Both the position numbers and the translations under genes were made by a program. The notes beneath the pieces are model-generated. The model was not told the origin of the DNA. It did no database searches and worked only from the letters and a program-made list of their open reading frames with translations. Positions 23,781 to 58,347 of a stretch of 64,000 bases of DNA are shown piece by piece; the stretch's first letter is position 1, and every line of letters starts with the position of its first letter. The stretch comes from Myxococcota bacterium. GTDB lineage: Bacteria; Myxococcota_A; UBA9160; JAFDDA01. Where the stretch lies: assembly GCA_965228475.1 (NCBI GenBank), contig OZ245817.1, positions 1,024,001 through 1,088,000 of the forward strand. The letters are read 5' to 3'.

Positions 23781-23783
23781 CCG

Positions 23784-25469: not shown

Positions 25470-26779
25470 CGCAGCGGCGCCCCCAGGCTCGCCTCGAGCG
25501 CGGCGAAGGAGCTCCTTCGGTCGGCAGTCGCCCGCTCCAGTCGCAGCTGCGCGTTCAGCAGCCGCACCTGGCTGTCGATCAGGCTCAGGAAATCCACCTT
25601 GTCCACCTCGTAGCCGGCTCGGCTCGAGTCCAGCGATTGTCGGGCCTGCGGGAGAAGCCCGGTTTCGACCAGCATCACCTCCCGATCGGCTCGCTGCAAA
25701 TCTGCGTACCGCGCGCGCAGCGAGTCGCGGAGCTGCGCCCGCGCCTGCCGATACTCGGCGTGACTCCGACGGAGCAAGGCATCTCGCTCCGCAACCTGCG
25801 ATCGCCACTTCCGCCGGTTGACGGGGAGTCGCACGGTCACGTTCGCCCCGATGAAGTCGTCTCCATCGACGGGATCGCCCGACACCCGTTCTCGGACCCG
25901 GTAGCCGAACCCGAGATCGAAGTCCGGATAGCCTTCCAGGCGGGCTACTCGCTTTCGATGCTCCGCCTCTTCGGTCCGCGCCGCGTGCGCGCGAAGGCGC
26001 GGGCTGGTCGACTCGAGCCGGTCGAGCAGGACGGACAGGGACGGGAGGGCTGCCGTCTCACGCACGGGAGCCGTTCGGGGCAGGGGAATGGAGGGCGGCA
26101 GGTCCAGGAGGCTCGCGAGGCGTGCCTCGGCGGAGCGTATCGCTGCTTCACGCATCAGCTGCTCGTCCAGCAGCTCCGTGAGCGTCACCTGTGCCCGCAT
26201 CACGTCCTGCTGCAGACCTTCGCCGACCTGGTACTTGGCTTCTGCGATCTTCGCGAGCTGCCTCAGCAGGCCGACGTTCTCGATGGTGACGTCGAGCGCC
26301 CGCTGGGCGAAGCCGAGCTCGACCCACGCGCGTTCGACCGCGGCGCGGATCCGCTGGGACTGGTCTCCGAGATCCTCCACGGCGGCGTCGGCTGCCGAAC
26401 GCGCGGCATCACGCTGCCGGCCGAGCAGCCCGGGGAACGGGAGCCGCTGGCTGAGCCCGAGCTGCTGGCCCGAGAGAGGCGTTGAATCGAGGTCCAGGTC
26501 GCCGGTGGGGACGTTGCTCAGCTCGTAGCGAAAGCGCGGGTCGGGAAGCGCGCCTGCCGGGTACACGCGTTCCGTTGCCGCCTCCGCTGCCGTTCGGGCA
26601 ACCTCGAGGGTTGGGTTGGTCGCTTCGGCTCGCTCCAAACACCACTCGAGCGGGAGGGGCTCGGGCGGCACTTCGGCAGCGCCTCTCGTTGCTGCGAGCG
26701 TCCCCATCACGAGAGCGATCACGATCTGACATCGGCTCGCCCAGAACGCCACCGGGCGTCCTCCTCGATCTCTCCTCAT
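25466..26779 (-). CDS. TolC-family outer membrane factor (CusC role)
   Basis: AGALPDP, SQRLPFPG, AKYQVGEG, AGYEVDKVDFLSLIDSQ; upstream of cusBA; start uncertain. Confidence 0.9.
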   Translation of the reverse strand: MRRDRGGRPVAFWASRCQIVIALVMGTLAATRGAAEVPPEPLPLEWCLERAEATNPTLEVARTAAEAATERVYPAGALPDPRFRYELSNVPTGDLDLDSTPLSGQQLGLSQRLPFPGLLGRQRDAARSAADAAVEDLGDQSQRIRAAVERAWVELGFAQRALDVTIENVGLLRQLAKIAEAKYQVGEGLQQDVMRAQVTLTELLDEQLMREAAIRSAEARLASLLDLPPSIPLPRTAPVRETAALPSLSVLLDRLESTSPRLRAHAARTEEAEHRKRVARLEGYPDFDLGFGYRVRERVSGDPVDGDDFIGANVTVRLPVNRRKWRSQVAERDALLRRSHAEYRQARAQLRDSLRARYADLQRADREVMLVETGLLPQARQSLDSSRAGYEVDKVDFLSLIDSQVRLLNAQLRLERATADRRSSFAALEASLGAPLR

Positions 26780-26830
26780 TCCACTTTCTCCTCGGCTGCC
26801 ATGGCTCCCCGCTCGGATGCGCGGGAGGCC

Positions 26831-27142
26831 TCAGGCCGGCAGCTTGAAGTGGAGAGAATCGAGGTTCGAGGCCCTCTCTTCCAGTCGCGATGTCTGGGGC
26901 TGGGAATGGCCAGCGTGGTCGAACTCGCCGGCGCGGTGATAACGGAGCCAGAAGAAGGTCGTGCAGATGGCCGTCGCGGTCGCACCGACTACGAGGATCC
27001 AACCCGCTGCTCGGAGGAGGCTCGCCGAGCGCTCGCGACCCACGTGCAGGAGCACGAGGCCTGCCGCCACCAGGCCCAACTCGGCCAGGAAGGCAATGTC
27101 GCCCAGGAACTGCGCCAACGGGTTCTCCTTTCTGCCGGTCAC
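26831..27142 (-). CDS. Small two-helix membrane protein
   Basis: Two hydrophobic segments; first ORF after the promoter motif at 27182-27158. Confidence 0.6.
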   Translation of the reverse strand: MTGRKENPLAQFLGDIAFLAELGLVAAGLVLLHVGRERSASLLRAAGWILVVGATATAICTTFFWLRYHRAGEFDHAGHSQPQTSRLEERASNLDSLHFKLPA

Positions 27143-27157
27143 CCAGCACCCGTCTAA

Positions 27158-27214
27158 TACGGAGCGGGGGAGCGGCCGTGACGCGGCCCGTCACGCCAGC
27201 CGCCGCTTCGCGTA
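27158..27214. promoter_or_regulatory. Back-to-back ECF-type promoter motifs
   Basis: Minus GTCACG-N15-CGTA (27182-27158) and plus GTCACG-N15-CGTA (27190-27214). Confidence 0.8.
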
Positions 27215-27250
27215 GTACCGGGCAGGGCGGTGGTGGGAGGAGAACGCGGC

Positions 27251-27481
27251 ATGGAAGAACCCGAACGGGCCTATGTGCCTCAGGAGCCCTCGACGGGTCT
27301 TGGAGCGTCGGGACGCTTGGCCTTCGCCGTCTTCGCGTTGGCGGCCGCCTACTTCCTGTGGACCGAGCACCGCGCCCACGTGATCGAGTTTCTCCCCTGG
27401 GGGATCCTTGCGCTGTGCCCGCTGATGCACGTGTTCATGCACCGTGGCCATGGTGGCCACCGCGGGGGCGGTGCGTCGTGA
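27251..27481 (+). CDS. DUF2933 family small membrane protein
   Basis: AAYFLWTEHRAHV...LALCPLMHVFMHRGHGGH; GGAGGAG RBS. Confidence 0.85.
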   Translation: MEEPERAYVPQEPSTGLGASGRLAFAVFALAAAYFLWTEHRAHVIEFLPWGILALCPLMHVFMHRGHGGHRGGGAS

Positions 27482-28137
27482 GTCATGGGTCCGACTACGG
27501 CCTCTGGTCGCTCGTCCTGATCAACTCGGCTGTCTTCATCCTGTTCGCCTTCAGCTTTGCCAAGCCGCAGACCACGCGGGACTGGCGGTCGTTTGGGGCG
27601 TTCTCGGCGTTCCTGGTGGCGCTGTTCGCCGAGATGTATGGCTTCCCGCTAACGATCTATCTCCTTTCGGGCTGGCTCGGCCGGCGGTTTCCGGAGACCG
27701 ATCTCTTCTCGCACGAGTCGGGCCACCTGTGGCACACGCTCTTCGGCTGGGAGGGCGACCCCCATCTCGATCCCTTCCACATCGTGAGCTACGCGCTGAT
27801 CGGCGGGGGCTTCTGGCTACTCTCGATCTCCTGGCCGGTCCTCTACCGGGCGCAGAGGGAGGGTCGCCTGGCGACCACGGGCCCGTACGCCCGAGTGCGC
27901 CATCCGCAGTATCTGGGCTTCATCGCGATCCTCGCGGGCTTCCTCTTTCAGTGGCCGACGCTGATCACGCTGGCGATGTTCCCGGTTCTCGTCTTCATGT
28001 ACGTGCGCCTGGCTCTTCGCGAGGAGCGAGAGGCCACGGCCGAGTTCGGTCAGGAATACGAAGCGTACGCCCAACGCACGCCGCGCTGGATCCCGGCCTT
28101 CTCGCGCACCTCTCGGGCCGAGAGCCCGGCCTCATGA
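27478..28137 (+). CDS. Isoprenylcysteine carboxyl methyltransferase family membrane protein
   Basis: ALFAEMYGFPLTIY, LATTGPYARVRHPQY, REE...FG..Y..Y; GTGA overlap with the DUF2933 gene. Confidence 0.88.
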   Translation: MSHGSDYGLWSLVLINSAVFILFAFSFAKPQTTRDWRSFGAFSAFLVALFAEMYGFPLTIYLLSGWLGRRFPETDLFSHESGHLWHTLFGWEGDPHLDPFHIVSYALIGGGFWLLSISWPVLYRAQREGRLATTGPYARVRHPQYLGFIAILAGFLFQWPTLITLAMFPVLVFMYVRLALREEREATAEFGQEYEAYAQRTPRWIPAFSRTSRAESPAS

Positions 28138-28147
28138 GGCATCCGGT

Positions 28148-28972
28148 GTGCGATCGATCGGCGGTGGGACGTCTGCACCGGGGGCGTTCGAGGTTGGACC
28201 GATGATGACCCCGAAGACCGCGTCTCTCGCACCCTGGCAGCGCGTCGTCAAGGCGTTCGCACGTCCGCTGGTCCGCCGCGCGACCCGAGAGATCCTGCAG
28301 GGGCGACTGCTCGATCCGGAAGACGCCAGCCGAGGGCGCTGGCTCCGCTCGGACGTCCGAGCGTTTCGCGGCGCCACTTGGCAGCGAGTCGACGAACTCC
28401 TGCCCAGGGCCGGCCTGGACCGGCTCCCCACCTGGGGAAGCCGGCTGAACGTTTTCATGGCGGTCGTCACGACCGCGGCCTACCAGGAGATGCTCGACCG
28501 TGGCATCTCCCGCGACTACGCCGCGACGCTCGTCGGCGACGTCGGCTGGAAGATCTACGCGTGGATGCTCACGGCATCGGCGATTCCTGCCCGTCTGCTG
28601 ACCCGATCGCCGGAGCGGCGGCTGCGCTGGACGCTCGACCTGCTGATGTGGTTCCCGTTCAGCGCGCCGGGTGCGCCGGCCTACGAGGTCCGGGCCTGGA
28701 ACGACGGCGAGAGGGTCTTCACCTATTGGACCCATTGCCCGCCCCAAACCTTCGTACGCTCGCTGGTGGACGCTGGCAACGACCGCGGCGAGCTCGACGC
28801 TTTCTTTCGTTCCTGGTGTCTATACGACTGGGCCGGAGCCGACCTCCTCGTTGGCGATGGCGAGCGCGGGCACTACGAACGGCCGCGCACTCTCTCTCGC
28901 GGGGACGACGTGTGCGACATGTGCTGGTGGGCTCGTCGATGCGCCGACAGAGGCGTCGAGACGACCGATTGA
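28148..28972 (+). CDS. Hypothetical protein, ATC-hydrolase-like C-terminal Cys pattern
   Basis: HCPP...WCLYD...RPRTLSRGDDVCD; true start may be ATG 28202. Confidence 0.6.
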   Translation: MRSIGGGTSAPGAFEVGPMMTPKTASLAPWQRVVKAFARPLVRRATREILQGRLLDPEDASRGRWLRSDVRAFRGATWQRVDELLPRAGLDRLPTWGSRLNVFMAVVTTAAYQEMLDRGISRDYAATLVGDVGWKIYAWMLTASAIPARLLTRSPERRLRWTLDLLMWFPFSAPGAPAYEVRAWNDGERVFTYWTHCPPQTFVRSLVDAGNDRGELDAFFRSWCLYDWAGADLLVGDGERGHYERPRTLSRGDDVCDMCWWARRCADRGVETTD

Positions 28973-29003
28973 ACCTAGCCTCTTGCGGCAGAAGGGAATC
29001 ACC

Positions 29004-29345
29004 ATGATGAGGAATGCGATCGTACTGGCCGTGGGCCTGATGCTGGCCCTCGGCGGGCCCTCGGCGTTGGCTGAGATGGACCACTCGGGGCACGGCTCGA
29101 GCTCCGCAAAGAAGATGGACCACGGGTCGATGGGACACGGTGGGATGTCCCACGGCAAGGGCGTGCACGCGATGCACACCCAGATGCAGGCCCTCCACGA
29201 CCACTCGAAGATGATGGAAGAGATGAAGGATGGCGCCGCGCTCCGGGAGGAGATGAAGAAGCACATGCGGATGATGGACGAAATGATGGAGATGATGATG
29301 CAACACACCATGAAGCTGGGAGCCAGCGGCCAGCCGGGCTCCTGA
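29004..29345 (+). CDS. Secreted Met/His-rich small protein
   Basis: Signal peptide ending ALA-EMDH; MDHGSMGHGGMSH and HMRMMDEMMEMMMQH. Confidence 0.8.
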   Translation: MMRNAIVLAVGLMLALGGPSALAEMDHSGHGSSSAKKMDHGSMGHGGMSHGKGVHAMHTQMQALHDHSKMMEEMKDGAALREEMKKHMRMMDEMMEMMMQHTMKLGASGQPGS

Positions 29346-29532
29346 GTAACCCGACCGGAATCGCGGATCAACGCGACGGAAGGGCCGGTCGAGCGTCGAT
29401 TGTAGAATCGAGCAGACGAGGCCGGCGGTCGGATGGAGCGAGCGACCTCACGCGCCGACGGTCCAGGAGCAGCCTGGCGCGTGGCTTGCACCAAGAGTGC
29501 TCGTTCGATGACTTGAGCGAAAGTAGGGAGAG

Positions 29533-31428
29533 GTGGCCATCCGAAAGAACCAGTTGAGCTGGACGCTCAGGAAGTGGTCGCGTCGTGCATTCATTCGAGC
29601 GATGGCCGCTGCGGGCGCGGGTGCCTGGGCCTTGCCGACGGCGCGCGCCGGTGCAGGGCAGATCCGGCGCGCCGGGGTTCCGACCGAGCTGGTGGCGACC
29701 GATCCCGGTGGGATCGACCTGGTTCTCGAGCGCAGCCCGCTGCTCGTCGGAGGGAGGCTCGGCAACGCCATCACTCTGAACGGCTCCATCCCGGGGCCCG
29801 TGATCCGCATGCAGGAGGGCGGCGAGGCGCTCATTCGCGTCCACAACCGGATGGCCGAGTCCACGTCGATCCACTGGCACGGGATCCTGCTGCCCTACAC
29901 GATGGACGGCGTTCCCGGCATCAGCTTCCCCGGAATTCCAGCGGGTGAGACGTTCACCTATCGCTATCCGGTCGTGCAGAACGGTAGCTACTGGTACCAC
30001 AGTCATACGGGGCTCCAGGAGCAGCTGGGTCACTACGGCCAGCTGACCGTCGAGCCGGCGGGGCGGGATCCGGTCGAGTACGACGTCGAGTACTCCGTGG
30101 TTCTCTCCGATTGGACCTTCGAAGATCCGCACACCGTGCTTCGGAACCTCAAGACGATCGAAGGCTACTACAACTATCAGCGTCCCACGGTCGCCAACGT
30201 CGACGACCAGATGGCGGCGACCGGCATGAGCCTGAGCGACGTGATCCGGGAGCGTCTCCGCTGGCAGCGGATGCGCATGGATCCCACCGACATCGCGGAC
30301 ATCACGGGGGCGACCTTCACCTACCTGATGAACGGCCATGCACCCGAAGAGAACTGGACCGCCATCGCACGGCCCGGCGACCGGGTTCGGCTGCGCATCG
30401 TCAACGCCTCGACGATGACCTTCTACGACTTCCGCGTTCCCGGGCTGCCGATGACGGTCGTGCAGGCCGACGGCCAGAACGTCCAACCGGTCGAGACCGA
30501 CGAGCTCCGTATCGCAGTCGCCGAGACGTATGACGTGATCGTGACGCTGCCGGATGACCGCGCCCGCACGCTCTTCGCCGAGACTATGGATCGCAGCGGC
30601 TACGCGCGCGGGACCCTGGCACCCAGACGCGGCATGGCCGCGGCCGTGCCCGAGCGGCGGCGGCGTCCGATGCTGACGATGGCAGAGATGGGCATCATGC
30701 ACGGGATGAGTGGCCACGGAGCAGGTGCGGGCACGGGCCACGGGATGGGTGGCCACGAAGCAACTGCGGGCATGGACCACGGCGACACGGATGCGACCTC
30801 TGCACACACGGACGCGGGAACCCCGCAGCACCACGGTGAGGCTCTGCCGATCACGCGGCTTCCCGAACGCATCGCGCACGGGCCGGACGGACACGGTCCG
30901 GGCAGCATCACCATGGCCGCCACGGCCTATCGTCAGCTCGACGACCCCGGCGTAGGCCTCGGGGACGACGGCCGCCGCGTCCTGACCTACGGGCAGCTTC
31001 GCTGCCTGAACGCCCCTTCCGACCGTCGCCCTCCCACCCGCCAGTTCGACCTCCATCTGACGGGCAACATGCACAAGTACATCTGGGGATTCGACGGCAA
31101 GAAGTGGTCCGAGTCCGACATGATCCGCTTCCAGTACGGGGAGCGGCTCCGGATCAACATGATCAACGACACGATGATGTCGCACCCCATCCACCTCCAC
31201 GGGATGTGGATGGACCTCTACGCCGGAGCGGACGACTACGGCGACAACCCGCGCAAGCACACGGTGAACGTGCAGCCGGCGGAGCTTCTGAGCGTCGACA
31301 TCAGCGTGGATGCCCCGGGGCAGTGGGCCTTCCATTGCCACCTGCTCTACCACATGGAAATGGGCATGTTTCGCACGGTCGCCGTGGTGCGCTCGCTCGA
31401 AGGAGGCCCGGTCGATGTGGGCGCGTAG
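29533..31428 (+). CDS. copA: CopA/PcoA multicopper oxidase (Tat-exported)
   Basis: SRRAFI Tat motif; HWHG, YWYHSH, HPIHLHG and HCHLLYHM copper motifs. Confidence 0.96.
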   Translation: MAIRKNQLSWTLRKWSRRAFIRAMAAAGAGAWALPTARAGAGQIRRAGVPTELVATDPGGIDLVLERSPLLVGGRLGNAITLNGSIPGPVIRMQEGGEALIRVHNRMAESTSIHWHGILLPYTMDGVPGISFPGIPAGETFTYRYPVVQNGSYWYHSHTGLQEQLGHYGQLTVEPAGRDPVEYDVEYSVVLSDWTFEDPHTVLRNLKTIEGYYNYQRPTVANVDDQMAATGMSLSDVIRERLRWQRMRMDPTDIADITGATFTYLMNGHAPEENWTAIARPGDRVRLRIVNASTMTFYDFRVPGLPMTVVQADGQNVQPVETDELRIAVAETYDVIVTLPDDRARTLFAETMDRSGYARGTLAPRRGMAAAVPERRRRPMLTMAEMGIMHGMSGHGAGAGTGHGMGGHEATAGMDHGDTDATSAHTDAGTPQHHGEALPITRLPERIAHGPDGHGPGSITMAATAYRQLDDPGVGLGDDGRRVLTYGQLRCLNAPSDRRPPTRQFDLHLTGNMHKYIWGFDGKKWSESDMIRFQYGERLRINMINDTMMSHPIHLHGMWMDLYAGADDYGDNPRKHTVNVQPAELLSVDISVDAPGQWAFHCHLLYHMEMGMFRTVAVVRSLEGGPVDVGA

Positions 31429-32320
31429 CCACCGCCGCTGGCTGGCCCTGATGGCGAGTCTCGCCTGGGCCGGGGGCGCGATGGCCGAGGAGCGCCCGTT
31501 GCCGACCACCGAGGGTCGGCCCGACCATCGCGCGTCGACCAACGAGCACCGTCGTCCGCCCGAGGTCCACCCCGAGAGTCCGGCGCTTCCGGACGGGATG
31601 TCGCTCGATGAGGTCCTCGATCGCGCGAGCCAGCCGCCGCCCGATCACTTTCCGGATCCCGTTCCCGACGACGCGCTCCGGGCCTTCCTGCTCTTCGAGC
31701 AGCTCGAGTATCGACTGCAGGACGGCGGCAAGGACGAGCTGGGCTGGGAGGGACAGGGCTGGATCGGTCTCGACTACCACAAGCTGTGGGTGAAGCTTGA
31801 GGGCGAGGCGGTCTTCGACGGGCCAGACGCGGGGGAGTCCGAGATCGACCTGCTCTACTCGTGCCTCGTCACCCCCTTCTGGAACGCGCAGATCGGCGTT
31901 CAATACGCGAGCGAGTGGGAGGGCGACGGCTACGACGATCGCTGGTCCGCGGCGTTTTCGCTCCAGGGCCTCGCGCCCGGGATGTTCGAGCTAGACACCT
32001 CGCTCTACCTATCCGAACGTGGCGATCTCACGGCTGCGATCGAAGGCGAGTACAACCTTCGATTGACACAGCGCCTGGTGCTCCAGCCGCGCGTGGAGTT
32101 CGGCTTCGCCGCGCAGGACGTGTCCGAACGCGAGCTCGGCGCCGGCATGACCGACGCCAACCTCGACCTCCGGCTGCGATACGAGGCCGAGCGCGAGATC
32201 GCGCCCTATGTGGGCGTCCGCTACCGCATGCTCGTGGGAGAGACCGGGAACCTGGCAGAGGCGAGCGGAGGCGACGACGACGCGATCTTCGGCTTCGTCG
32301 GGCTTCGCCTTGCGTTCTGA
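31415..32320 (+). CDS. copB: CopB/PcoB outer membrane copper resistance protein
   Basis: EQLEYR, GWIGLDYHKLWVKLEGE, QGLAP, LTQRLVLQPR, REIAPYVG, terminal F. Confidence 0.92.
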   Translation: MWARSHRRWLALMASLAWAGGAMAEERPLPTTEGRPDHRASTNEHRRPPEVHPESPALPDGMSLDEVLDRASQPPPDHFPDPVPDDALRAFLLFEQLEYRLQDGGKDELGWEGQGWIGLDYHKLWVKLEGEAVFDGPDAGESEIDLLYSCLVTPFWNAQIGVQYASEWEGDGYDDRWSAAFSLQGLAPGMFELDTSLYLSERGDLTAAIEGEYNLRLTQRLVLQPRVEFGFAAQDVSERELGAGMTDANLDLRLRYEAEREIAPYVGVRYRMLVGETGNLAEASGGDDDAIFGFVGLRLAF

Positions 32321-34620: not shown

Positions 34621-35313
34621 TTGGGGATGAAACATGCATCACGATCCGCGACGAAACGCGCCCCGCCCATGAGCGGCCATCCCGACGTAGGCATCTCCGA
34701 CGAGGTCGAGCGGACGCGGCGGCTCTATCGTTGGGTCGCGCCCTTCTACGACACGTTCCGCCGGCTCTGGAGTCGCTGGACCCAGCCTGTGGAGGATGCT
34801 CTGGACGCCTGGTTTCGTGAACGCATCGGTCCGTCGAGCCGCATCCTCGAGCTGGCGCCCGGCACCGGCATCAATGTCGATCGGTTGCTTCGCCACGCGC
34901 CCGACTTCACCTCCTACCTGGGAATCGACTCGAGCCCGGAGATGCTCGATCGGGCCCGGGAGCGGAGCGGCGGGGACGCGCGGATGGAGCTTCGCCTCGG
35001 CGACGCGACGGATCTCGGCGGTGTCGCAGGAGCGTTCGACTTCATCGTCTGCACGTGGCTGCTCTCCCATCTCGACGCGCCCGCGGAGCTGGTGCGCGAC
35101 GCCGTCGGGCGGCTCGCTCCGGGCGGTTCGGCGGTATTCGTGTTCTTCTCGGCACCTCTGAACCCTGTCCGCCGCGGTGTCCTGTCGGCTCTCGGCCGCC
35201 CGTTTCGATACCGCTTCGTTGACGCCGAGACGCTGCGCGGCATCCCCAATCTCGAGAGCCTGGAGATCTGCGCCGGCGGGATGGCGACGGTCGCCTCGTT
35301 CCGCGCGCCGTGA
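34621..35313 (+). CDS. Class I SAM-dependent methyltransferase
   Basis: ILELAPGTG, GIDSSPEML, GDATDL, FDFIV, LAPGG; true start may be ATG about 34670. Confidence 0.88.
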   Translation: MGMKHASRSATKRAPPMSGHPDVGISDEVERTRRLYRWVAPFYDTFRRLWSRWTQPVEDALDAWFRERIGPSSRILELAPGTGINVDRLLRHAPDFTSYLGIDSSPEMLDRARERSGGDARMELRLGDATDLGGVAGAFDFIVCTWLLSHLDAPAELVRDAVGRLAPGGSAVFVFFSAPLNPVRRGVLSALGRPFRYRFVDAETLRGIPNLESLEICAGGMATVASFRAP

Positions 35314-35327
35314 TTTCGTTGGTGACT

Positions 35328-36041
35328 CTAGTGGTGCTTGTAGAATCCAACTCCTCGAATGTCTGGCCACGATGTAGTCAGATGGCAGGCGTAGCACTCC
35401 CGCACCTCCGCATGCGGCTGCCGGGCGACCTTGGCCGAGAGCATCTTGAAGTGCTCCATGTAGTGGCTGGGCGGCGCTTGGTGGCACTGGGCGCAGTCTC
35501 GAGAGCGCGGCGTCGGATGTGCGAACGCGGGGACGTCCCAGGTGTTCGTCTCGTGGCAGTCGATGCATTCGCTGCCGAAGAGGTCGAAGTGCGTGTCCTG
35601 GTTCCCGTGGCAGGCGGCGCAGGCCAAGGAGTTCAAGGATCCGTCGCCACGCGACGTCGTCTCGCCGCGAGGCCAATCCGCGGCGATCCTCGCGAGGAGC
35701 TCGTGGTCGAGCGGTGCCCGCAGGCGGGAGGGGACGACGTGCTCGACGTGGCAGTCGGCACAGACCGCCGCCTCGGCGTGGAACGCGGTCGTCTGCCGCT
35801 GGACCAGCCGACCGTTCAACGCGTGGCAGGCGATACAGCCGTCGGCCTCGACGCCTCGGATCGGCTGGTGACAGTCACTGCATTCGAGGGCGAGGCGCTG
35901 GTGTGCTGGATCGAGCGGCCCGGGCTCACTCTGGGTTTCGACCCAGCCCCAGGCACCGCGCAGCGACGGGTCGTCGCAGCCCTGGAAGCCCGGTGCCAGG
36001 CATGCGACGAGGGCCAGAACTCGGGCGGCCGTCCAGCGCAC
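35328..36041 (-). CDS. Seven-heme cytochrome c
   Basis: Seven CxxCH motifs (CSDCH, CIACH, CADCH, CAACH, CIDCH, CAQCH, CYACH); N-terminal signal with possible lipobox. Confidence 0.9.
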   Translation of the reverse strand: MRWTAARVLALVACLAPGFQGCDDPSLRGAWGWVETQSEPGPLDPAHQRLALECSDCHQPIRGVEADGCIACHALNGRLVQRQTTAFHAEAAVCADCHVEHVVPSRLRAPLDHELLARIAADWPRGETTSRGDGSLNSLACAACHGNQDTHFDLFGSECIDCHETNTWDVPAFAHPTPRSRDCAQCHQAPPSHYMEHFKMLSAKVARQPHAEVRECYACHLTTSWPDIRGVGFYKHH

Positions 36042-36043
36042 GC

Positions 36044-36802
36044 CTAGAGCCAGCGCAGCCCGAGCCGAAGCTCGATCGCGACGTGCAGGGTCAGGAGCAG
36101 GTAGAGCGCGAACGTGAGGACGATGTGGATCCGAAGCCAGCGCGAGAACCAGGAGCGGAGGGTCTCTCCGGTTCGAAGGGCCGACTCGACCTCCGCCAGC
36201 GCGTCGGCGACTCGGAGGGCGCGCTGAACGGGAAGTTGGCCCAGCGTCGGGTCGCTCGGTCGATCGAAGAGCATCCCCCCGAGCCAGGTCCGGATTGGTC
36301 CCGCGAGCGGCACGAAGAGGGCGGACTGACCAGGGCTGGAGCGCACGACGGCGGCCAGCTCTGCATACTCCCGCTGGAGGCCGTCGCGCAGCTTCCGTTG
36401 GTCGCGGACGTCTTCACCGATCGCTCGCATCAAGTAGCGCCCGACGAACCCGCTCATCGCCACGATGAGCATGGAGGCGGTCAGCGCGATCCCGATCCGG
36501 CTCTCGAACCGATGCCCCGTGTGCAGGAGCGCGAGGATCGGGCCCAGGATCCCCGCGTAGATGTGCCAGGCCAGCAGCGTTCGCAGCGGGACCCTCTGGG
36601 TGATCGCTCTTCGGAGCGGCTTGATCCGCTTGACCGCGACGTAGGCCAGCGGGACGGTCATCAGCAGCGCTGCGGCGATCCCGAGCGCGGAGCCGGCCAG
36701 ACTTCCCGGGAAGCGCGGCGAGCGATGGAGCAGGAAGCCCAGCCAGAGCAGCAGCATCAGGGCAACGAGCCCTCCGATGACGAGACGCTCCCGCTCGCGC
36801 AC
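36044..36802 (-). CDS. Membrane protein, putative heme-b / ferric-reductase-like
   Basis: Hydrophobic helices with paired His 13 residues apart (WHIYAGILGPILALLH; IHIVLTFALYLLLTLH); GTG start 2 nt after the upstream stop. Confidence 0.72.
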   Translation of the reverse strand: MRERERLVIGGLVALMLLLWLGFLLHRSPRFPGSLAGSALGIAAALLMTVPLAYVAVKRIKPLRRAITQRVPLRTLLAWHIYAGILGPILALLHTGHRFESRIGIALTASMLIVAMSGFVGRYLMRAIGEDVRDQRKLRDGLQREYAELAAVVRSSPGQSALFVPLAGPIRTWLGGMLFDRPSDPTLGQLPVQRALRVADALAEVESALRTGETLRSWFSRWLRIHIVLTFALYLLLTLHVAIELRLGLRWL

Positions 36803-36804
36803 GG

Positions 36805-38721
36805 CTAGGCGTCCACCTCGAGGTCGGCTGTGGCCCGCGCCTGGCAGGCGAGGACGAGCCCTGCCGCCCGATCCTCGTCGTCGAGCCCGTCGTCGATCTC
36901 CATCGTGACCTCGCCAGAGAGGAGCTTCACGGTGCAGCTCCCGCAGGTGCCCGAGCGACACGACCATTCGATCTCTACGTCGACCGATTCCGCCGCGTCG
37001 AGGATCGTACGGCCGGCCGGGAGCGGCGCCGATTTCTTGGAGCGCGCAAAGGTCACGCTCGGCGCATTCGCTGGAGACACCTCCCGGAGCGCGATCGGCG
37101 GCGGCAGAGGAGCGACTGGGCCGAAGGACTCGAAACGGATCCGTTCGCGCGCCACGCCCAGCTCGAGCAGGAAGTCGCGCGTCGCGTCCATCATCGCCTT
37201 CGGTCCGCACAGGTGGACTCGTCGAGAGGCAATGTCCGGCAGCACCTCGCGGACGAGATCGGAGCCGATGCGGCCGGTGCGGCCGCGCCAGTCGGTTCCC
37301 TCCGGCTTCGACGCGGTCGCCACGACGCGGAGGTTCGGGTGTCGACGCGATAGACGCTCGAGCTCCTCGCGGAAGACGAAGTCTGCCGGAGTCCGGAAGC
37401 CGAAGAAGAGTGTGATCTTGCCGCCCCAGCCGCTGTCCGTCAGGTAGCGGATGACGCTCATCAGGGGCGTGATCCCAATCCCGCAGGCGATCAGGACGAT
37501 CGATGGATCCTCTTCGCCGGTGAAGGTGAATCGGCCGTAGGGAGCTGCGATTCGGAGTTCATCGCCTGCCGCCAGCGCGTCGTGCAGGTGGCGCGAGACC
37601 ACCCCTTCGGGCTCGCGCTTCACCGAGATCTCGCAGTAGGCACCCTGCGTAGGCGACGAAGCGATGGTGTACGAGCGCTTCACCAATGGGGCCGCCTCGC
37701 CGTGGGCCGGGACGAGGACGTTCATGAACTGGCCTGGGAGGTAGTCGAAGGGGAGCGGCCCCCCGTCGACAGCCGTCAAGCGGAAGGTCTTCACGTCCGG
37801 GGTCTCTCCGAAGATGCCGGCGACGCGCATCCGGGTCGAGCAGGGGTTCTTGCAGCCACCGCACGCCCCTGTCTTGCGCAGCTGCTCGAAGGCAGCGGCG
37901 CTATTCGCCGGCCCGGTCGCCCTCCGAACCGGCGCTGGTGAGCGAGCGGCACCCGAGTCGGCGTTTTCGGAGGGTGGTGCCGGATCCGGCGTCTCTGCGG
38001 GCTGATGTGCCAGCTCCCCCAGCAGCGCCGCCGCTCGACGCATCCTGTGGACGTGCATCGCGAGCATGCCGGCGGCCAACGTCGTGACGAATGCCATCGC
38101 GAAGAGGTGAAACCAAGTCAGACCCAACGGGCCACTCACCCGCTCGGCGCCGGCTCCCGTCAGGCCCATCTCGCCACGGAACCACCCGAGCGCGATCTCT
38201 CGAGGCTCTCTTCCCGCGGCGAGGGCCTGCGAGGTCGCAAGGCCGCTCTCGAGCTCGTCGAGTCCAGCCCGCGCTTCGGCCACAGCTTCCGACAGGTCGG
38301 CTCGGTCTCCCTCGCGCGTGGCCGTGTCGAGCGCCTCGATGCCACGCGCAAGGCGTTCGGCGCCATCGGCTCGCCGCCTGGCCGCGCGCTCCAACAGCTC
38401 GCGCTCGTGGTCCTCGGACAGATCCTCGAGCCGCATCATCTCGGGGTAGAGTTCCCGGGGCGGAGGGACGCCCATCCGCTCCATCATCGCGTCCATGTTG
38501 CCCATTCCACCGCCGGCCATCGGGGGCTCGCCCGGCTGAGGCCTTGATGACGCTCCCGGGGGGCCTCCAGGATGGTGCGATTCGTGCTCCGTCGAGTCGG
38601 TCTGCGCCCCGACGCCGCCCGCCAGGACTACCAATCCGGCCACCGCGGCAAGCGTTCCGGCCACGGAGGCCACCGGGTGGGTCGACCGAATCCGGCCGCA
38701 GGGGATCGCCTTCCGTCTCAC
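36805..38721 (-). CDS. Membrane-anchored FNR-type FAD/NAD(P) oxidoreductase with C-terminal 2Fe-2S ferredoxin
   Basis: RSYTIASSP, GVVSRHLH, GIGITP, LCGP, ESF; CRSGTCGSC...LAC; N-terminal signal, helical domain and one TM. Confidence 0.9.
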   Translation of the reverse strand: MRRKAIPCGRIRSTHPVASVAGTLAAVAGLVVLAGGVGAQTDSTEHESHHPGGPPGASSRPQPGEPPMAGGGMGNMDAMMERMGVPPPRELYPEMMRLEDLSEDHERELLERAARRRADGAERLARGIEALDTATREGDRADLSEAVAEARAGLDELESGLATSQALAAGREPREIALGWFRGEMGLTGAGAERVSGPLGLTWFHLFAMAFVTTLAAGMLAMHVHRMRRAAALLGELAHQPAETPDPAPPSENADSGAARSPAPVRRATGPANSAAAFEQLRKTGACGGCKNPCSTRMRVAGIFGETPDVKTFRLTAVDGGPLPFDYLPGQFMNVLVPAHGEAAPLVKRSYTIASSPTQGAYCEISVKREPEGVVSRHLHDALAAGDELRIAAPYGRFTFTGEEDPSIVLIACGIGITPLMSVIRYLTDSGWGGKITLFFGFRTPADFVFREELERLSRRHPNLRVVATASKPEGTDWRGRTGRIGSDLVREVLPDIASRRVHLCGPKAMMDATRDFLLELGVARERIRFESFGPVAPLPPPIALREVSPANAPSVTFARSKKSAPLPAGRTILDAAESVDVEIEWSCRSGTCGSCTVKLLSGEVTMEIDDGLDDEDRAAGLVLACQARATADLEVDA

Positions 38722-38777
38722 GCACGCTCCTGGGATGGACCTGCACCTCCACGGGAGAGGGCCTCGCTCGATGGGAA

Positions 38778-38802
38778 TACGGGCAATGTCATCGGACGGG
38801 AC
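38778..38802 (-). promoter_or_regulatory. ECF-type promoter motif with one mismatch
   Basis: GTCCCG-N15-CGTA followed by TT on the minus strand. Confidence 0.6.
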
Positions 38803-38832
38803 GGAGGAACGCCGTCTAACCGCCAGGTCCCC

Positions 38833-39903
38833 TCAGAACGCCGCGGTGAGGTCCCGGTCGTCGACCCTCAGCGCGGTGATCACACCGTCCAGATCGACTC
38901 CCTGGTGGCTGTGAACGATTCCGGCGGGAAGGTCGCCTCGTAGGACCTGGCGAACACACTCGCTGGCCACGACCGCGGTCATGCGAGCCTCCCGGCGCCC
39001 CGCGATGGAGAACTGGACACGTCTCGGCGCCCCGTTCGCATCGGTTCCGGTGGCCCGAGCCGCGACCCTGCAATGATCCGAGCCTCTGGCGGCACGCTGG
39101 AGGAGCGCGACGGTGGCGGCTCGCCATGGGTTGCGGCGAAGCACGGCACCGAGGGGCCGGCGAGAAGCCTGGGCGAGCAGCCACGTCCAGAAGCCGCTCC
39201 CAAAACGGATCCAAGACGAGACGGACCCGACGTCGAGAGTGCGCGCGAGAACGTGTTGGTCCGCGAAGTTGAAGCGATACATCGCGCTGGGACGAGATTC
39301 GCCCGGAAGGTCGAAACGTAGTATGTCGCCGAAGCTCCGTACGTTCTTCCTCTGCCCTTCTTCGAGCACCTCGTACGGGGCATCGAGATTGTCGAGGATC
39401 CATCCCAAGGCAGCCGCCCCGTGGTCGTCCCCGAAGCCGACATCGATCAGGAGGTCGATCCGTTCGGTCGCGGCCAAGGCGTCGTGGGCTCGCACGGCCA
39501 GGAGGTTCGTCAATCCCGGTGCCACGCCCACGCTCAACAGCGCTGTGGCGCCATGCCGACGCGCCGTGCCGTCGAGGCGCTCAACCTCCGTGAAGAAGTG
39601 ATCATTGGCGGTGATGTCCACGTAGTGGATCCGTCGAGCCAGGCACGATGAGGCAAACCGAGTGTTGACCTGATCGATGCATACCACGACCAGCACTATC
39701 CCCTCGAGCGCGTCGCTGGCGTTGGATGAGGAGAGATCGACGGCCCGGCCTATGGCACCGTTTCCGACGGTTCGCGCGGCCGACACCGCCCGGGCGCCGT
39801 CGCGCCCGCCAATACAGACGCGGCCGGGATAGCGGCCGGCCAGGCGCGCCGCGATCTTTGCGCCGACCTTTCCGTAGCCACCGACGACGAGAATGCGCCC
39901 CAT
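38833..39903 (-). CDS. Saccharopine dehydrogenase-like NAD(P)-binding oxidoreductase
   Basis: ILVVGGYGKVG, HYVDIT, SVGVAPGLTNLLA. Confidence 0.85.
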   Translation of the reverse strand: MGRILVVGGYGKVGAKIAARLAGRYPGRVCIGGRDGARAVSAARTVGNGAIGRAVDLSSSNASDALEGIVLVVVCIDQVNTRFASSCLARRIHYVDITANDHFFTEVERLDGTARRHGATALLSVGVAPGLTNLLAVRAHDALAATERIDLLIDVGFGDDHGAAALGWILDNLDAPYEVLEEGQRKNVRSFGDILRFDLPGESRPSAMYRFNFADQHVLARTLDVGSVSSWIRFGSGFWTWLLAQASRRPLGAVLRRNPWRAATVALLQRAARGSDHCRVAARATGTDANGAPRRVQFSIAGRREARMTAVVASECVRQVLRGDLPAGIVHSHQGVDLDGVITALRVDDRDLTAAF

Positions 39904-39980
39904 TCCCACGCCTGCGCGTCGTCTCGATTCCATCGAAGAGCCTGAACCTCCTGCTGGCAACCGCAGGCATCCATCGATCC

Positions 39981-40041
39981 TACGGCCCGTGGGAACCGCG
40001 GTGACCTGTGTCCGGCGTCACCGATCCGTCGCCGGCCCGTA
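39981..40041. promoter_or_regulatory. Back-to-back ECF-type promoter motifs
   Basis: Minus GTCACC-N15-CGTA (40005-39981) and plus GTCACC-N15-CGTA (40017-40041). Confidence 0.8.
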
Positions 40042-40072
40042 TTCCCGCCCAACTGGAGAGGGAGAGAGTGCC

Positions 40073-41380
40073 ATGGAAGCCGCGGATGTCTTCGAGGATG
40101 CAGTCAGCCGTCTGGTTCGGATCGGAGAAGATGCCGGCCTGAACTCGGAGACCCTCGCCGCATTGCAGCGTCCGCAGTCGCTCCACGAGGCGACTCTACC
40201 GGTCCGGATGGACGACGGGGGCACGCGCCACTTCCAGGCCTTCCGCTGCCGCTACAGCGACGTCCTGGGCCCGGCCAAGGGCGGGATCCGCTTCCATCCG
40301 AAGGTGAGCTCCGCCGAGGTCCGGGCGCTGGCGCTCTGGATGACGCTCAAGTGCGCCGTCGTCGGGATTCCGTTCGGAGGCGGCAAGGGCGGGGTCGTCG
40401 TCGATCCCAAGGGGCTGTCGCGTCTCGAGCTCGAGCGGCTCTCGCGCGCCTACATGCGGGCCATGGCCGACGTGGTGGGCCCCGATCGGGACGTCCCGGC
40501 GCCCGACGTCTACACGAACGAGCGGATCATGGGCTGGATGGCGGACGAGTACGAAGAGATCCGCCGGGCCAAGGCCCCGGCCGTCATCACGGGGAAGCCC
40601 ATCGAGCTCGGCGGGAGCCTGGGGCGCGACGAAGCGACGGGCCGCGGCGCCTTCCTCGTGCTTCAGGATCTGGCCAAGCGGCGCGGGCTTAGCCCCGGCG
40701 ATACGCGGATTGCCATCCAGGGGTTCGGAAACGCCGGCTCGCAGGTCGGACGTCTTCTCCAGGGCGCGGGCTATCGCGTGATCGCCGTCTCCGATTCCAA
40801 GGGCGGCGTGTTCGCGGGCGATGGCCTCGACGTCGAAGCGCTGCACCGGGAGAAGCAGGCGAGCTGCGGGCTGGGCGGCGTCTACTGCGAAGCCTCGGTC
40901 CGGAGCTGCTGTGGGCCCGCCAACGTGGAGCCGATCTCCAATGCCGATCTCCTGGAGCTTGACGTGGATGTCCTGATTCCGGCCGCGCTCGAGGGCGTGA
41001 TCGGCCAGGAGAACGTCGAGCGCGTGAGGGCACCGATCGTCCTCGAGGTTGCGAATGGGCCGGTCCGCAGCGAGGTCGACGCCCGCTTGGACGAGCGGGG
41101 AATCCTCGTCGTTCCCGACGTCCTCGCCAACGCCGGCGGCGTGGTCGTCAGCTACTTCGAGTGGGTCCAGAACCGACAGGGCCTGTCGTGGGGCCTCCCC
41201 GAGGTCCGGGACCGTCTGCGATCGGTGCTGGCCGAGGCCTTCGAGGTCGTGTGGGACTGTTGGCAGGCGGAGGGCGGCTCCATGCGACGAGCCGCCTACG
41301 TGACGTCACTGCGCCGTCTCGAAGCCGCACTCGCCGCGCACGGAGCGCGCGAGTACTTCGTCGAGCCGGTTCGCCGATGA
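40073..41380 (+). CDS. gdhA: Glu/Leu/Phe/Val dehydrogenase (glutamate dehydrogenase-like)
   Basis: GPAKGGIRFHP, MTLKCA, GGGKGG, DVPAPD, QGFGNAG, EVANGP, NAGGVVVSYFEWVQN. Confidence 0.94.
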   Translation: MEAADVFEDAVSRLVRIGEDAGLNSETLAALQRPQSLHEATLPVRMDDGGTRHFQAFRCRYSDVLGPAKGGIRFHPKVSSAEVRALALWMTLKCAVVGIPFGGGKGGVVVDPKGLSRLELERLSRAYMRAMADVVGPDRDVPAPDVYTNERIMGWMADEYEEIRRAKAPAVITGKPIELGGSLGRDEATGRGAFLVLQDLAKRRGLSPGDTRIAIQGFGNAGSQVGRLLQGAGYRVIAVSDSKGGVFAGDGLDVEALHREKQASCGLGGVYCEASVRSCCGPANVEPISNADLLELDVDVLIPAALEGVIGQENVERVRAPIVLEVANGPVRSEVDARLDERGILVVPDVLANAGGVVVSYFEWVQNRQGLSWGLPEVRDRLRSVLAEAFEVVWDCWQAEGGSMRRAAYVTSLRRLEAALAAHGAREYFVEPVRR

Positions 41381-49098: not shown

Positions 49099-49186
49099 GC
49101 GCCGAGGCCAGGATACACATCGAGCTGAAGTCGAAGCGTTCGACCCTGCGGCCGATCGACATACTCCGGATTTTTCTTGCGCCCCG

Positions 49187-49211
49187 GTCACCCCGTCACG
49201 GCTGGTCCGTA
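49187..49211 (+). promoter_or_regulatory. ECF-type promoter motif
   Basis: GTCACC-N15-CGTA. Confidence 0.78.
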
Positions 49212-49247
49212 TTTTGTTTACGGGGGCCCGAACTGGGGAGGGGCAAG

Positions 49248-50585: not shown

Positions 50586-50592
50586 GGAGGGG

Positions 50593-51150
50593 GTGATGCT
50601 TCGCTACCTGATCTTCGTTCCCGTCCTGCTCGCGGTTGCCTGTTCCGGCTCGGGCACTCCGCGCCAGGCGCCGATCGACGGCGCGACGGTCTACGCGAAC
50701 AACTGCAACCGCTGCCACGAGTTTCGCTCGCCGACGGAGTTCAATGGGCCGCAGTGGTCGATCATCTCGACGCACATGCGTCTGGTCGGCGGGATGCCCG
50801 CGGACGAGTCACGGGCGGTCTACGAGTATCTGAAGTCACAGCACCACCCTCCCTACGTGCCCGATGGGGCGGAAGGGGCTTCGCTTTCGGTCGATCCCGA
50901 CTCAGGCCGAGCGCTCGTCCACGAGCGCGGGTGCATCGGCTGCCACGTGGTGGAAGGGCGGGGCGGCAAGATGGGGCCCTCGCTCGACCGCATCTCCGAG
51001 CGACGGTCCGAGGAGTTCGTGGTGCAGCAGATCCTCGACCCCAAGGCGAACAACACCACGAGCCTCATGCCCAATCTCGGGCTCTCTCGGGCCGACGCCC
51101 AGGCGATCTGGGCCTACCTGAGTAGCCTGGATGGAGGAGGCGGAGTCTGA
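50593..51150 (+). CDS. Diheme cytochrome c lipoprotein
   Basis: Lipobox LAVAC; CNRCH...HM and CIGCH...MP; GAGGAGG RBS. Confidence 0.9.
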   Translation: MMLRYLIFVPVLLAVACSGSGTPRQAPIDGATVYANNCNRCHEFRSPTEFNGPQWSIISTHMRLVGGMPADESRAVYEYLKSQHHPPYVPDGAEGASLSVDPDSGRALVHERGCIGCHVVEGRGGKMGPSLDRISERRSEEFVVQQILDPKANNTTSLMPNLGLSRADAQAIWAYLSSLDGGGGV

Positions 51151-51307
51151 TTCCTCATGGCTCGGGGAGGCGGAAGAGGCCGTCCATTCACGTTCGCGGC
51201 CGCGAACCCGCGGCGCAGCTGCGGCATCTCAAGTCGTCGTGCCGGGTGGCCGATCGTGGGCGTACGGCGTCAGGGTGGCGTACCTTCGGTCGGCAGGAGC
51301 CAGCCAG

Positions 51308-51739: not shown

Positions 51740-51809
51740 TCCCCTTCAGGTTCGAACGCCGTAGCGGCGCTTCCCGGCACGTCCCGGGTTTCTCGAATCT
51801 GGAGGAGAC

Positions 51810-58330: not shown

Positions 58331-58347
58331 CGTGATCCGAGCCGGCC

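Follow-up and report, generated by a model that had tools for sequence, protein, structure and literature searches.

In a 64,000-nucleotide (nt) stretch of a Myxococcota bacterium genome (GenBank assembly GCA_965228475.1, contig OZ245817.1, positions 1,024,001 to 1,088,000; hereafter the window, numbered from its first letter), three adjacent genes on the (-) strand were found that very probably form one conduit carrying electrons from NAD(P)H across the membrane to the periplasm. They lie head to tail and encode a membrane-anchored ferredoxin-NADP+ reductase (FNR)-ferredoxin protein (RED, 36805..38721, 638 amino acids [aa]), a five-helix membrane protein that its sequence marks as a probable di-heme b cytochrome (MEM, 36044..36802, 252 aa) and a periplasmic heptaheme cytochrome c (CYT, 35328..36041, 237 aa), each with a GTG start. 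The trio probably acts in copper homeostasis. That it is specifically a Cu(II) reductase is a more tentative assignment, and the best explanation as a whole, with conduit, copper and Cu(II) substrate taken together, stands slightly short of evenly poised.

Our best reading is that the three genes (the module) encode a functionally uncharacterised, split and extended variant of the transmembrane reductases of the NOX, Fre and STEAP kind. We infer the physical complex of the three proteins, the binding of heme b, the direction of electron flow and the substrate. An NAD(P)H-to-periplasm wire had already been proposed in an initial annotation of this DNA, and the invariant ligands, the predicted topology and the linkage of the genes across phyla and plasmids support it at the level of sequence.

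Organization of the three genes

The genes are separated by 2 nt at both junctions, which were read directly in the sequence: TAG, 'cc' and GTG at 36802 between RED and MEM, and TAG, 'gc' and GTG at 36041 between MEM and CYT. The tight packing described in the initial annotation was thus correct, and its range, 35328..38802, encloses the trio; its upper end, on the other hand, lies 81 nt past the first in-frame start of RED, the GTG at 38721, the codon at 38802 being GTC. The three frames have a GC fraction of 0.82-0.87 at the third codon position and of 0.47-0.55 at the second, the signature of real genes in a genome of 67% GC, indicating that the many open reading frames (ORFs) opposite the trio on the (+) strand are shadows. 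The ORF listing also allows a longer MEM (36044-37210) that would overlap RED by 406 nt. The start of MEM was placed at GTG 36802 because 24 homologs begin at the aligned Met in a 25-sequence alignment. A scan of positions 35000-39200 for promoters and terminators found nothing.

MEM carries two invariant histidine pairs

Hydropathy revealed five hydrophobic segments in MEM, corresponding to five membrane-length helices. Conservation was determined in an alignment of 25 sequences, the window protein and 24 others spread across the 120 matches listed. Both histidines of H80-x13-H94 on helix 3 (36521..36565) and of H226-x13-H240 on helix 5 (36083..36127) were invariant in 25/25, as was W222, which precedes the second pair with a spacing of W222-x3. 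These are the two His-x13-His helices of the initial annotation, and full conservation of the pairs upholds them. Helix 4 carries SGFVG (S117-G121, 36440..36454), in which S117, G118, F119 and G121 are invariant. The complete set of invariant histidines is H26, H80, H94, H97, H226 and H240.

The mean number of Lys and Arg residues was 5.6 in the loop at 57-73, against 2.0 at 26-34 and 1.0 at 95-102, indicating that the N-terminus of MEM is inside and its C-terminus outside, with helices 3 and 5 parallel. This arrangement should bring H80 and H226 close to the inner face and H94 and H240 close to the outer one. By analogy with ferric-reductase domains this is the geometry of two stacked b-hemes, and MEM may well bind heme b in this way. 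The AlphaFold2 model (mean predicted local distance difference test score, pLDDT, 72) has in addition a cytoplasmic helical hairpin of about 90 residues (126-218) between helices 4 and 5. A complex prediction with MEM, RED residues 190-638 and two hemes scored 0.01 against a mark of 0.32, which counts neither way on binding.

Three invariant histidines at the outer face of the membrane, H26 (36725-36727) and H97 (36512-36514) of MEM and H205 of RED (38107-38109), are surplus to two b-hemes and may belong to an additional metal or heme site where RED, MEM and CYT meet.

A word-indexed search returned 1032 relatives of MEM at E<=0.001, and a profile search of 1.84 billion cluster representatives returned 2020 at E<=0.001 and 517 at E<=1e-10. 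Among the 120 relatives listed none had a Pfam domain, and their names were 'hypothetical' or, once, 'Iron reductase'; an Atlas search with MEM gave only unnamed or 'Iron reductase' clusters. The MEM profile found nothing at E<1 among PDB sequences. The model gave 0 Foldseek matches to the PDB at E<=0.001, and the top rows of that search were ABC-transporter and BAR-domain helices because the long hairpin drives the match. A distant MEM subfamily of about 242 aa (P0219, P0226, P0241, P0247, P0262) keeps both Hx13H pairs together with SGIVG and a C-terminal YYGLRW. One 465-aa relative (P0178) joins the NAD/Fer2 end of RED to a full MEM and was considered as a natural fusion; its truncated ferredoxin domain is followed by an Arg-rich stretch, so that it looks like a frameshift artefact.

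RED joins an exported His/Met domain to an FNR-ferredoxin module

Pfam identified three domains in RED, each above cut-offs of 21-22 bits: FAD_binding_6 (47.6 bits; residues 308-399, 37525..37800), NAD_binding_1 (79.9 bits; NAD(P)-binding, residues 410-515, 37177..37494) and Fer2 (62.8 bits; residues 560-631, 36829..37044). RED was aligned as a set of 22 sequences, the window protein and 21 chosen from the 80 related loci described below. The four cysteines of the plant-type 2Fe-2S ferredoxin domain (588, 593, 596 and 626) were invariant in 22/22. So were R349, Y351 and S355 at the FAD motif R-x-Y-T/S (R349-x-Y351-T in the window protein), and G414, G416, T418, P419, C505 and G506 of the NAD motifs G-x-G-x-T-P and C-G-P. 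RED therefore has the features of an FNR-like reductase with a plant-type ferredoxin (CX4CX2C...C). It belongs to none of the named FNR-ferredoxin equivalogs, since its NCBIfam scores fall far below the curated cut-offs (Hcr/PRK10684, 208 against 383; GbcB, 206 against 500; PaaE, 165 against 421).

The N-terminal part begins with a leader (residues 1-40, 38602..38721) that has a hydrophobic core at 17-35 by hydropathy and ends in ...GAQ. An aligned 'AQ' precedes the His motif in homologs, and the leader is presumably cleaved. The motif itself, HESHH (residues 46-50, 38572..38586), lies within the consensus EHxxHHP; its three histidines, H46, H49 and H50, were invariant in 22/22 sequences and in 19/19 of a second set, and they form a putative metal-binding site. 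It is followed by a Met-rich stretch, PPMAGGGMGNMDAMMERMG (residues 66-84, 38470..38526), with the consensus GGMGGxMxxMMEKMG across homologs, which is probably flexible because its pLDDT is low. AlphaFold2 then predicts a periplasmic helical domain (residues 91-184, 38170..38451) with helices at 103-137, 140-169 and 173-184 and a pLDDT mostly >90 over residues 101-160. The single transmembrane (TM) helix, located by hydropathy (residues 199-224, 38050..38127), contains H205 and is followed by RMRRAA or KMRRAA; H205, R229 and A230 are invariant. The leader, the exported domain and the TM helix with its RMRRAA flank together put the His/Met domain on the periplasmic side and the FNR-ferredoxin module on the cytoplasmic side.

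Pfam, hydropathy and AlphaFold2 thus agree with the architecture first given for RED: an exported His/Met-containing helical domain, one TM helix, then FAD, NAD and 2Fe-2S domains. The motif CGGCKNPC in the cytoplasmic linker (residues 287-294, 37840..37863), which had been singled out in the same description, proved to be lineage-specific and not a family feature, as it was present in 2/22 sequences only, those of the window and of its closest relative, L001 (as CGRCKDPC). Two other RED homologs carry different Cys-rich inserts in this region. The periplasmic domain had been suggested to gate the wire; it could equally be a substrate site.

The first 237 residues of RED are conserved, yet they match no Pfam family. 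Their model gave 0 Foldseek matches to the PDB at E<=0.001; nine of the rows listed were CnrX/NccX chains at E 0.5-2.5, a lead only. A profile of the same part had its best match among PDB sequences at E 0.083, to an unrelated fusion protein. Pfam Metal_resist (CpxP/Spy/CnrX) matched the exported domain of 1/19 sequences at E=0.93, which gives no grounds for membership. An Atlas search with the N-terminal part gave scores of 0.82. Whether the exported domain arose by fusion of a copy of the Met-rich partner protein described below was examined with hhalign; the probability of 19% over 11 columns does not support this.

CYT is a heptaheme c3-type cytochrome

The seven CxxCH motifs counted in CYT by the initial annotation are present and were invariant in 21/21 sequences. 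Seven further histidines (47, 88, 101, 113, 151, 175 and 193) were also invariant in 21/21, enough for seven bis-His hemes, and axial ligation of the hemes by these residues is predicted from the sequence. Pfam Cytochrom_c3_2 matched CYT with 38.3 bits against a cut-off of 25, which places it among the c3-type cytochromes. The leader is short in the window copy and contains LVAC at residues 11-14, which we take to be a possible lipobox; the homologs start with a plain hydrophobic anchor.

The module is conserved across phyla and carried by plasmids

A scan of species-representative genomes gave 166 stretches with a MEM relative, and 80 loci were kept and searched by tblastn with the window proteins. 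The C-terminal part of RED adjoins MEM in 80/80 loci, and the gene order and strand of the trio are constant. The N-terminal part of RED was detected in 73/80, all seven misses being stretches that start inside or just before RED, and CYT was detected in 76/80, three of the misses being stretches that end <=27 nt past MEM. Judged by the titles of their records, the hosts belong to about ten phyla, including Planctomycetota, Nitrospirota, Nitrospinota, Acidobacteriota, Verrucomicrobiota, Myxococcota, Binatota, Hydrogenedentota and Proteobacteria. Among the 80 loci the closest to the window is L001, from a Myxococcales metagenome-assembled genome, with 61-72% identity.

MEM also matched 54 plasmid records, 27 of them typed as conjugative (Sphingobium 17, Alteromonas 7, Legionella 5, others). 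Co-occurrence of the genes beyond the window, on which the proposal of a single system depends, is seen in the genome loci and on plasmids. Seven plasmid regions were read; the trio was fully annotated in five, and 6/6 of the plasmid cytochromes translated had seven CxxCH. The gene table of the Methylocystis plasmid region contains no cytochrome. Plasmid pBBta01 of Bradyrhizobium sp. BTAi1 (L084) carries two copies of the module (8169-11442 and 17189-20663). An IS3 transposase truncates RED in one copy. The second copy, which is intact, extends past the stretch read and has a 'Spy/CpxP family' gene upstream, with MEM annotated as 'iron reductase'. The BTAi1 plasmid homologs of 258 aa (7 CxxCH) and 247 aa have 42-43% identity to the window proteins. 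In existing annotations the module proteins are called 'hypothetical', 'iron reductase' or '2Fe-2S cluster-binding protein'.

Copper-resistance and reductant-forming genes surround the module

The neighbourhood of the module was analyzed by clustering all ORFs of the 80 loci, followed by targeted tblastn and Pfam searches. The most frequent companion was a Met/Gly-rich exported protein, found in 51/80 loci; in 50 of these its gene is immediately upstream and in the same orientation. It has the invariant motif ALPGFPGASHIYHIGxTGFFLDHxEH and an LTxEQR tail. The one member scanned scored 27.2 bits (E=4.8e-6) against Pfam Metal_resist, whose cut-off is 29.2, and on plasmids the protein is annotated as 'periplasmic heavy metal sensor' or 'Spy/CpxP family protein refolding chaperone'.

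Multicopper oxidase (MCO) genes were present in 23 of the 80 loci, copper P-type ATPases in 15, CopB in 10 and TolC-like proteins in 9. At least one of MCO, Cu-ATPase, CopB and YHS was found within 7 kb in 46/80 loci, that is 57%, where a rough estimate, not a computation, that assumes a handful of copper genes in each genome would expect one in a few percent of random 14-kb stretches. In the 43 loci flanked by at least 5 kb on each side, a copper gene was present in 32 and the Met-rich protein in 39. Copper genes may even lie within the module: in L076 MCO and CopB genes sit between MEM and CYT, and in L058 a Cu-ATPase with DUF5676 and ICMT companions sits between RED and MEM. Plasmid islands revealed a similar pattern. 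In Sphingobium the module is accompanied by a Cus-type resistance-nodulation-division (RND) system with a copper-binding protein, a MerR-type regulator, a four-helix-bundle copper-binding protein, MCO and CopB; in Variovorax, MCO, CopB and GH15 surround the trio; the Methylophaga island has a Cu-ATPase, DUF411, a full ccm operon and glgP; and that of Pontibacter has glgP, isoamylase, type II glyceraldehyde-3-phosphate dehydrogenase (GAPDH) and RND/TolC.

Genes that form NAD(P)H are a second recurrent class. Glucose-6-phosphate dehydrogenase was found in 7/80 loci and a Glu-type dehydrogenase in 7/80, either of them in 14/80, and in all seven of its loci the latter lies directly upstream of RED on the same strand. 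YHS-fused glycogen phosphorylase was present in 8/80 loci and a small CBM48-like protein in 19/80. This distribution suggests that the glycogen and NAD(P)H neighbours supply reductant during metal stress. Glycogen-breakdown and NAD(P)H-forming genes recur across phyla (L001, L014, L018, L046, L053, L057, L063, L064 and others), and the plasmid loci L081, L084, L086 and L087 also have genes of one or the other kind; further members of the set are glucoamylase/GH15, isoamylase, debranching enzyme and type II GAPDH.

The same neighbourhood would also suit a broader enzyme. The wire could be a general periplasmic metal reductase that turns Cu(I), Ag(I), Au(III) or other ions into insoluble metal(0), or that is altogether unselective, and so detoxifies by precipitation. 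Each of the seven c-hemes of CYT has a candidate for its second His ligand, as in low-potential c3-type cytochromes, which are unselective metal reductases in Desulfovibrio; the Cus/Sil-like RND systems and Met-rich proteins of the islands fit Ag(I) as well as Cu(I); and the conflict with a neighbouring Cu(I) oxidase, discussed below, would disappear. However, no module-specific porin or outer-membrane partner was found in the loci examined, and the conserved His/Met modules resemble ion-handling and not nucleation sites. We consider this explanation improbable.

A different group of neighbours raises the question of whether free metal is the target at all. In 33/33 of the longer database relatives MEM continues at its periplasmic C-terminus into a DUF547 domain, and there are no fusions to FNR or cytochrome c among them. 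Such MEM-DUF547 fusions occur in about 11 of the 80 loci (L014, L016, L017, L022, L030, L032, L038, L043, L044, L061, L066), and in L034 (6145-6996) and L056 (3473-4294) DUF547 is a separate exported protein encoded between RED and MEM. Each of the two DUF547 sequences read has an N-C-x4-C-P pair. Such a CxxxxC-type pair, the complete ccm operon beside the module on the Methylophaga plasmid, and a cupredoxin and a cytochrome c within the window would all fit a wire that keeps periplasmic proteins reduced during copper stress (cupredoxins, c-type cytochromes, MCO or DUF547 partners) or drains reactive oxygen species. On the other hand, DUF547 is absent from most loci and from the window, none of the hemes has a coordination position that is obviously free for O2 or peroxide chemistry, and no protein client is conserved across loci. 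Protein reduction is accordingly, in our judgement, another improbable role.

A proposed route for electrons and copper

The copper context of the module leads us to favour the following mechanism. Cytoplasmic NAD(P)H would reduce the FAD of RED, whose C-terminal 2Fe-2S domain would pass single electrons to the inner heme b of MEM (H80/H226). Electrons would cross MEM to the outer heme b (H94/H240), which would feed CYT, located at the periplasmic face with its seven bis-His c-hemes. The Met/His-rich Spy/CpxP-like periplasmic protein would be a fourth member in most relatives. The module would serve copper, possibly also silver, homeostasis, its likeliest job being to reduce Cu(II) to Cu(I) in the periplasm. 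Two His sites, EHxxHHP at the N-terminus of RED and the His motif of the protein encoded upstream, would bind Cu(II); the Met-rich stretches would then receive Cu(I) and pass it on to efflux or carrier proteins specific for that ion. The reductant would come from the products of neighbouring genes, those for glycogen breakdown and those for dehydrogenases that form NAD(P)H.

His-rich ligands are expected for Cu(II) and Met-rich ligands for Cu(I). Cu(II) is favoured as the acceptor because the sole conserved periplasmic modules besides the cytochrome are His-rich and Met-rich, because copper genes interleave with the module, and because heme-based extracytoplasmic Fe and Cu reductases are an established kind of enzyme; such reduction by membrane reductases is described as widespread in the available part of PMC13038864. 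The initial annotation had offered metal reduction or repair as the function of the wire. Metal reduction gains from the copper-resistance context, with Cu(II) as a candidate substrate; repair finds no specific support, as no Msr-type or thiol-reductase gene belongs to the core set.

Several results weigh against this mechanism. Cu(I) is more toxic than Cu(II). MCO, a frequent neighbour, oxidises Cu(I) (PMC5566968, available part) and thus does the opposite reaction, so that a cupric reductase beside it looks like a futile cycle. Possible ways round this conflict are that Cu(I) is supplied to Cu(I)-specific efflux, that the two enzymes work in different oxygen regimes, or that reduction proceeds past Cu(I). 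No MCO, ATPase, CopB or YHS gene was found within 7 kb in 34/80 loci, nor in 11/43 of the well-flanked ones, and the gene for the Met-rich partner was not found in the window. One locus, L004, lacks CYT despite 7 kb of sequence 3' of MEM. MEM falls under the Pfam Ferric_reduct cut-off and has no significant PDB match by sequence or fold, and the full-text literature searched, which did not include subscription journals or bioRxiv supplements, held no functional study of any module member. The last of these points comes from a hydrogenase operon of Alteromonas into which the module runs, as described next, and which indicates a more general low-potential role.

L004 (3158-10158) is the sole locus with ample downstream DNA and no cytochrome; its sequence after MEM looks AT-rich and non-coding, which may reflect a rearrangement or an assembly join.

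The Alteromonas hydrogenase operon and the direction of electron flow

The Alteromonas region was read for one of the seven plasmid records, Alteromonas macleodii pAM1A3 (L083). At 7213-14711 it carries the Met-rich gene, RED, MEM, CYT and a gene for a 407-aa multi-TM protein, which is followed by hynD, hupH, hynS and hyp genes of a [NiFe] hydrogenase, with gaps of 13, 15, -4 and 2 nt. The module may therefore be an electron partner of this hydrogenase. More generally, the wire may link NAD(P)(H) to low-potential periplasmic partners and be recruited most often for copper. An 'orf2' is needed for the best activity of the Alteromonas hydrogenase in E. coli, according to the part of that study available (PMC3701524).

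The operon-like arrangement with hynD, hupH and hynS on pAM1A3 would agree with electrons flowing inward, the cytochrome taking them from a periplasmic donor (H2 via hydrogenase, Cu(I) or Fe(II)) and delivering them to NAD(P)+ or metabolism. Related five-TM Hx13H proteins have been proposed as inward carriers in Fe(II) oxidisers (PMC5566968, available part). However, hydrogenase genes were found in 0/80 genome loci. Reduction of NAD(P)+ by Cu(I) or Fe(II) requires an input of energy, and inward flow opposes the membrane potential, which favours outward flow. The NAD(P)H-forming neighbours fit outward flow as well, and for these two reasons, membrane potential and neighbours, the outward direction is preferred; an inward wire seems to us very unlikely.

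Comparison with known systems

The ferric reductase domain is a six-helix domain, and its members include NOX, yeast Fre, STEAP and MsrQ. As is proposed for the module, these enzymes have two hemes b bound by His pairs on parallel helices, take their electrons from an FNR-type NAD(P)H/FAD module and send them outward. MEM has the two His pairs about 13 residues apart on parallel TM helices, with five helices instead of six. Against Pfam Ferric_reduct (PF01794) it scored 13.3 bits (E=0.09; cut-off 28), which leaves it outside the family, and 15/25 members of the MEM family gave matches, all sub-threshold, with a best E of 0.0022. The module differs from these enzymes by its split subunits, the 2Fe-2S cluster between FAD and heme, the ~90-residue helical hairpin and the seven-heme c extension. 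Some ferric-reductase-domain members reduce Cu(II), according to the available part of PMC13038864.

The same source describes the PepSY_TM reductases FoxB, FsrB and CrpH as periplasm-facing, heme-b-dependent metal reductases, CrpH being proposed, not shown, as a periplasmic copper reductase (PMC13038864, available part). In contrast to the module, PepSY_TM reductases have no dedicated NAD(P)H reductase or cytochrome c, and CrpH supplies copper to oxidases under scarcity, whereas the module sits in resistance islands. Pfam PepSY_TM (PF03929) matched 1/25 MEM family members, at E=0.16, and did not match the window MEM, which is thus no member. In its C-terminal 340 residues RED follows the FAD-NAD-2Fe-2S order of phthalate-dioxygenase-reductase-type proteins (Hcr, GbcB, PaaE). 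Those are soluble oxygenase partners, whereas RED adds an exported domain of ~200 residues and a TM helix.

The closest description of the module was found in He et al. 2017 (PMC5566968), the available part of which reports unassigned multiheme cytochromes beside five-TM HX13H proteins and 'another redox protein'. Its Supplementary Table 6 lists, for Bradyrhizobium japonicum and Rhodopseudomonas palustris TIE-1, a 7-heme cytochrome of 256-258 aa, a five-TM protein with two HX13H of 231-235 aa and a redox protein of 608-702 aa; for these trios the table gives sizes and counts only, with no function and no copper link. Compared by description only, the window trio (237, 252 and 638 aa) fits the sizes, the heme count and the lack of a porin.

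The inner-membrane proteins of the PCC3 and PCC4 clusters of Fe(II) oxidisers resemble MEM in that they span the membrane five times, have SGxxG on helix 4 as well as HX13H on helices 3 and 5, and are encoded next to a multiheme cytochrome c (PMC5566968, available part). The WX3HX13H pattern of PCC3/PCC4 fits helix 5 of MEM (W222-x3-H226) but not helix 3, which has W79-H80 and not WX3H; apart from this Trp spacing MEM has all features of the five-TM HX13H inner-membrane proteins as defined there. The PCC3 and PCC4 clusters differ in having a porin, much larger cytochromes and a proposed quinone coupling, and their authors regard them as different families (PMC5566968, available part).

This likeness of helix and motif pattern, together with the quinone coupling suggested for PCC3/PCC4 (PMC5566968, available part), is the ground for supposing that MEM is a quinone-linked cytochrome b of respiration or extracellular electron transfer, RED being an unrelated or regulatory neighbour. 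However, RED is adjacent to MEM in 80/80 loci and is itself membrane-anchored; the module has no porin or outer-membrane cytochrome; the hosts, judged by their names, are mostly aerobic heterotrophs or nitrifiers; and the 2017 authors themselves judged such clusters less likely to act in extracellular electron transfer (PMC5566968, available part). A quinone-linked role is, of the explanations considered here, the one to which we give least credence.

Further, and taken jointly, the data could describe an unrecognised mobile arm of copper resistance, a transmembrane reducing system that spends NAD(P)H to set the redox state of periplasmic copper; this reading is rather unlikely. In it, NAD(P)H would come partly from glycogen, via the copper-sensing YHS-fused glycogen phosphorylase and dedicated dehydrogenases. 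The module would be a bacterial counterpart of the eukaryotic Fre/STEAP cupric reductases, built of separate subunits and extended by a 2Fe-2S cluster and a wire of seven hemes. Its substrate would bind at the exported His/Met domain of RED, possibly also a copper-dependent switch acting via the TM helix (H205), and in Alteromonas a periplasmic [NiFe] hydrogenase would have taken the wire into its service.

Models of bacterial periplasmic copper handling rest on oxidation by MCOs, efflux and chaperones, and a dedicated periplasmic source of electrons is missing from them. If the Cu(II) reductase reading is true, the module would account for the way in which the balance of Cu(I) and Cu(II) is adjusted outside the cytoplasm, would tie metal stress to carbohydrate reserves and would be a new build of NOX-like transmembrane reductase. 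The only periplasmic copper reductase proposed so far, CrpH, is still a hypothesis in the available part of PMC13038864. The copper and glycogen/NAD(P)H links, the exported His/Met domain of RED and the plasmid spread were in no paper that our literature searches returned. The module is widespread (2020 cluster representatives, about ten phyla, 54 plasmid records), and its cultured, non-pathogenic hosts include Sphingobium, Variovorax, Alteromonas and Tautonia.

Other genes of the window

The window copy of the module has neighbours of the same classes. An MCO gene (29533-31428, (+); Pfam Cu-oxidase_3, Cu-oxidase_2 and Cu-oxidase) lies 3 kb downstream of CYT together with CopB (31310-32320, (+); Pfam CopB). 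No porin-like gene adjoining the trio was found in the window, CopB being assigned to the pair with MCO. Just upstream of RED and divergent from it is a gene for a Glu/Leu/Phe/Val-type dehydrogenase (39893..41380, (+); Pfam ELFV_dehydrog). Farther away on the MCO side are genes for an RND pump (20652-23780, (-)), an OEP protein (25466-26779, (-)) and an ICMT-like methyltransferase (27484-28134, (+)). On the other side are those for a cytochrome c (50593-51150), a second OEP protein (51919-53091), a second RND pump (53828-57403), a cupredoxin-like protein (57443-58330), an extracytoplasmic function (ECF) sigma factor (59342-59905), a Haem_bd protein (60733-61185) and a YHS-HMBD P-type ATPase (61503-63827). 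With its stretches at 20652-29494 and 48699-63827, the whole window reads as a metal-resistance island.

At the left end of the window is a gene for an RHS-repeat protein of 1247 aa (189-3932). Positions 6001-16000 have a lower GC content than the rest of the window (0.59-0.62 against 0.67-0.70 elsewhere) and are possibly foreign DNA. This stretch contains genes for a REase-ARP / PD-(D/E)XK nuclease (14431-15246, (-)) and an ion channel (15502-16284, (-)).

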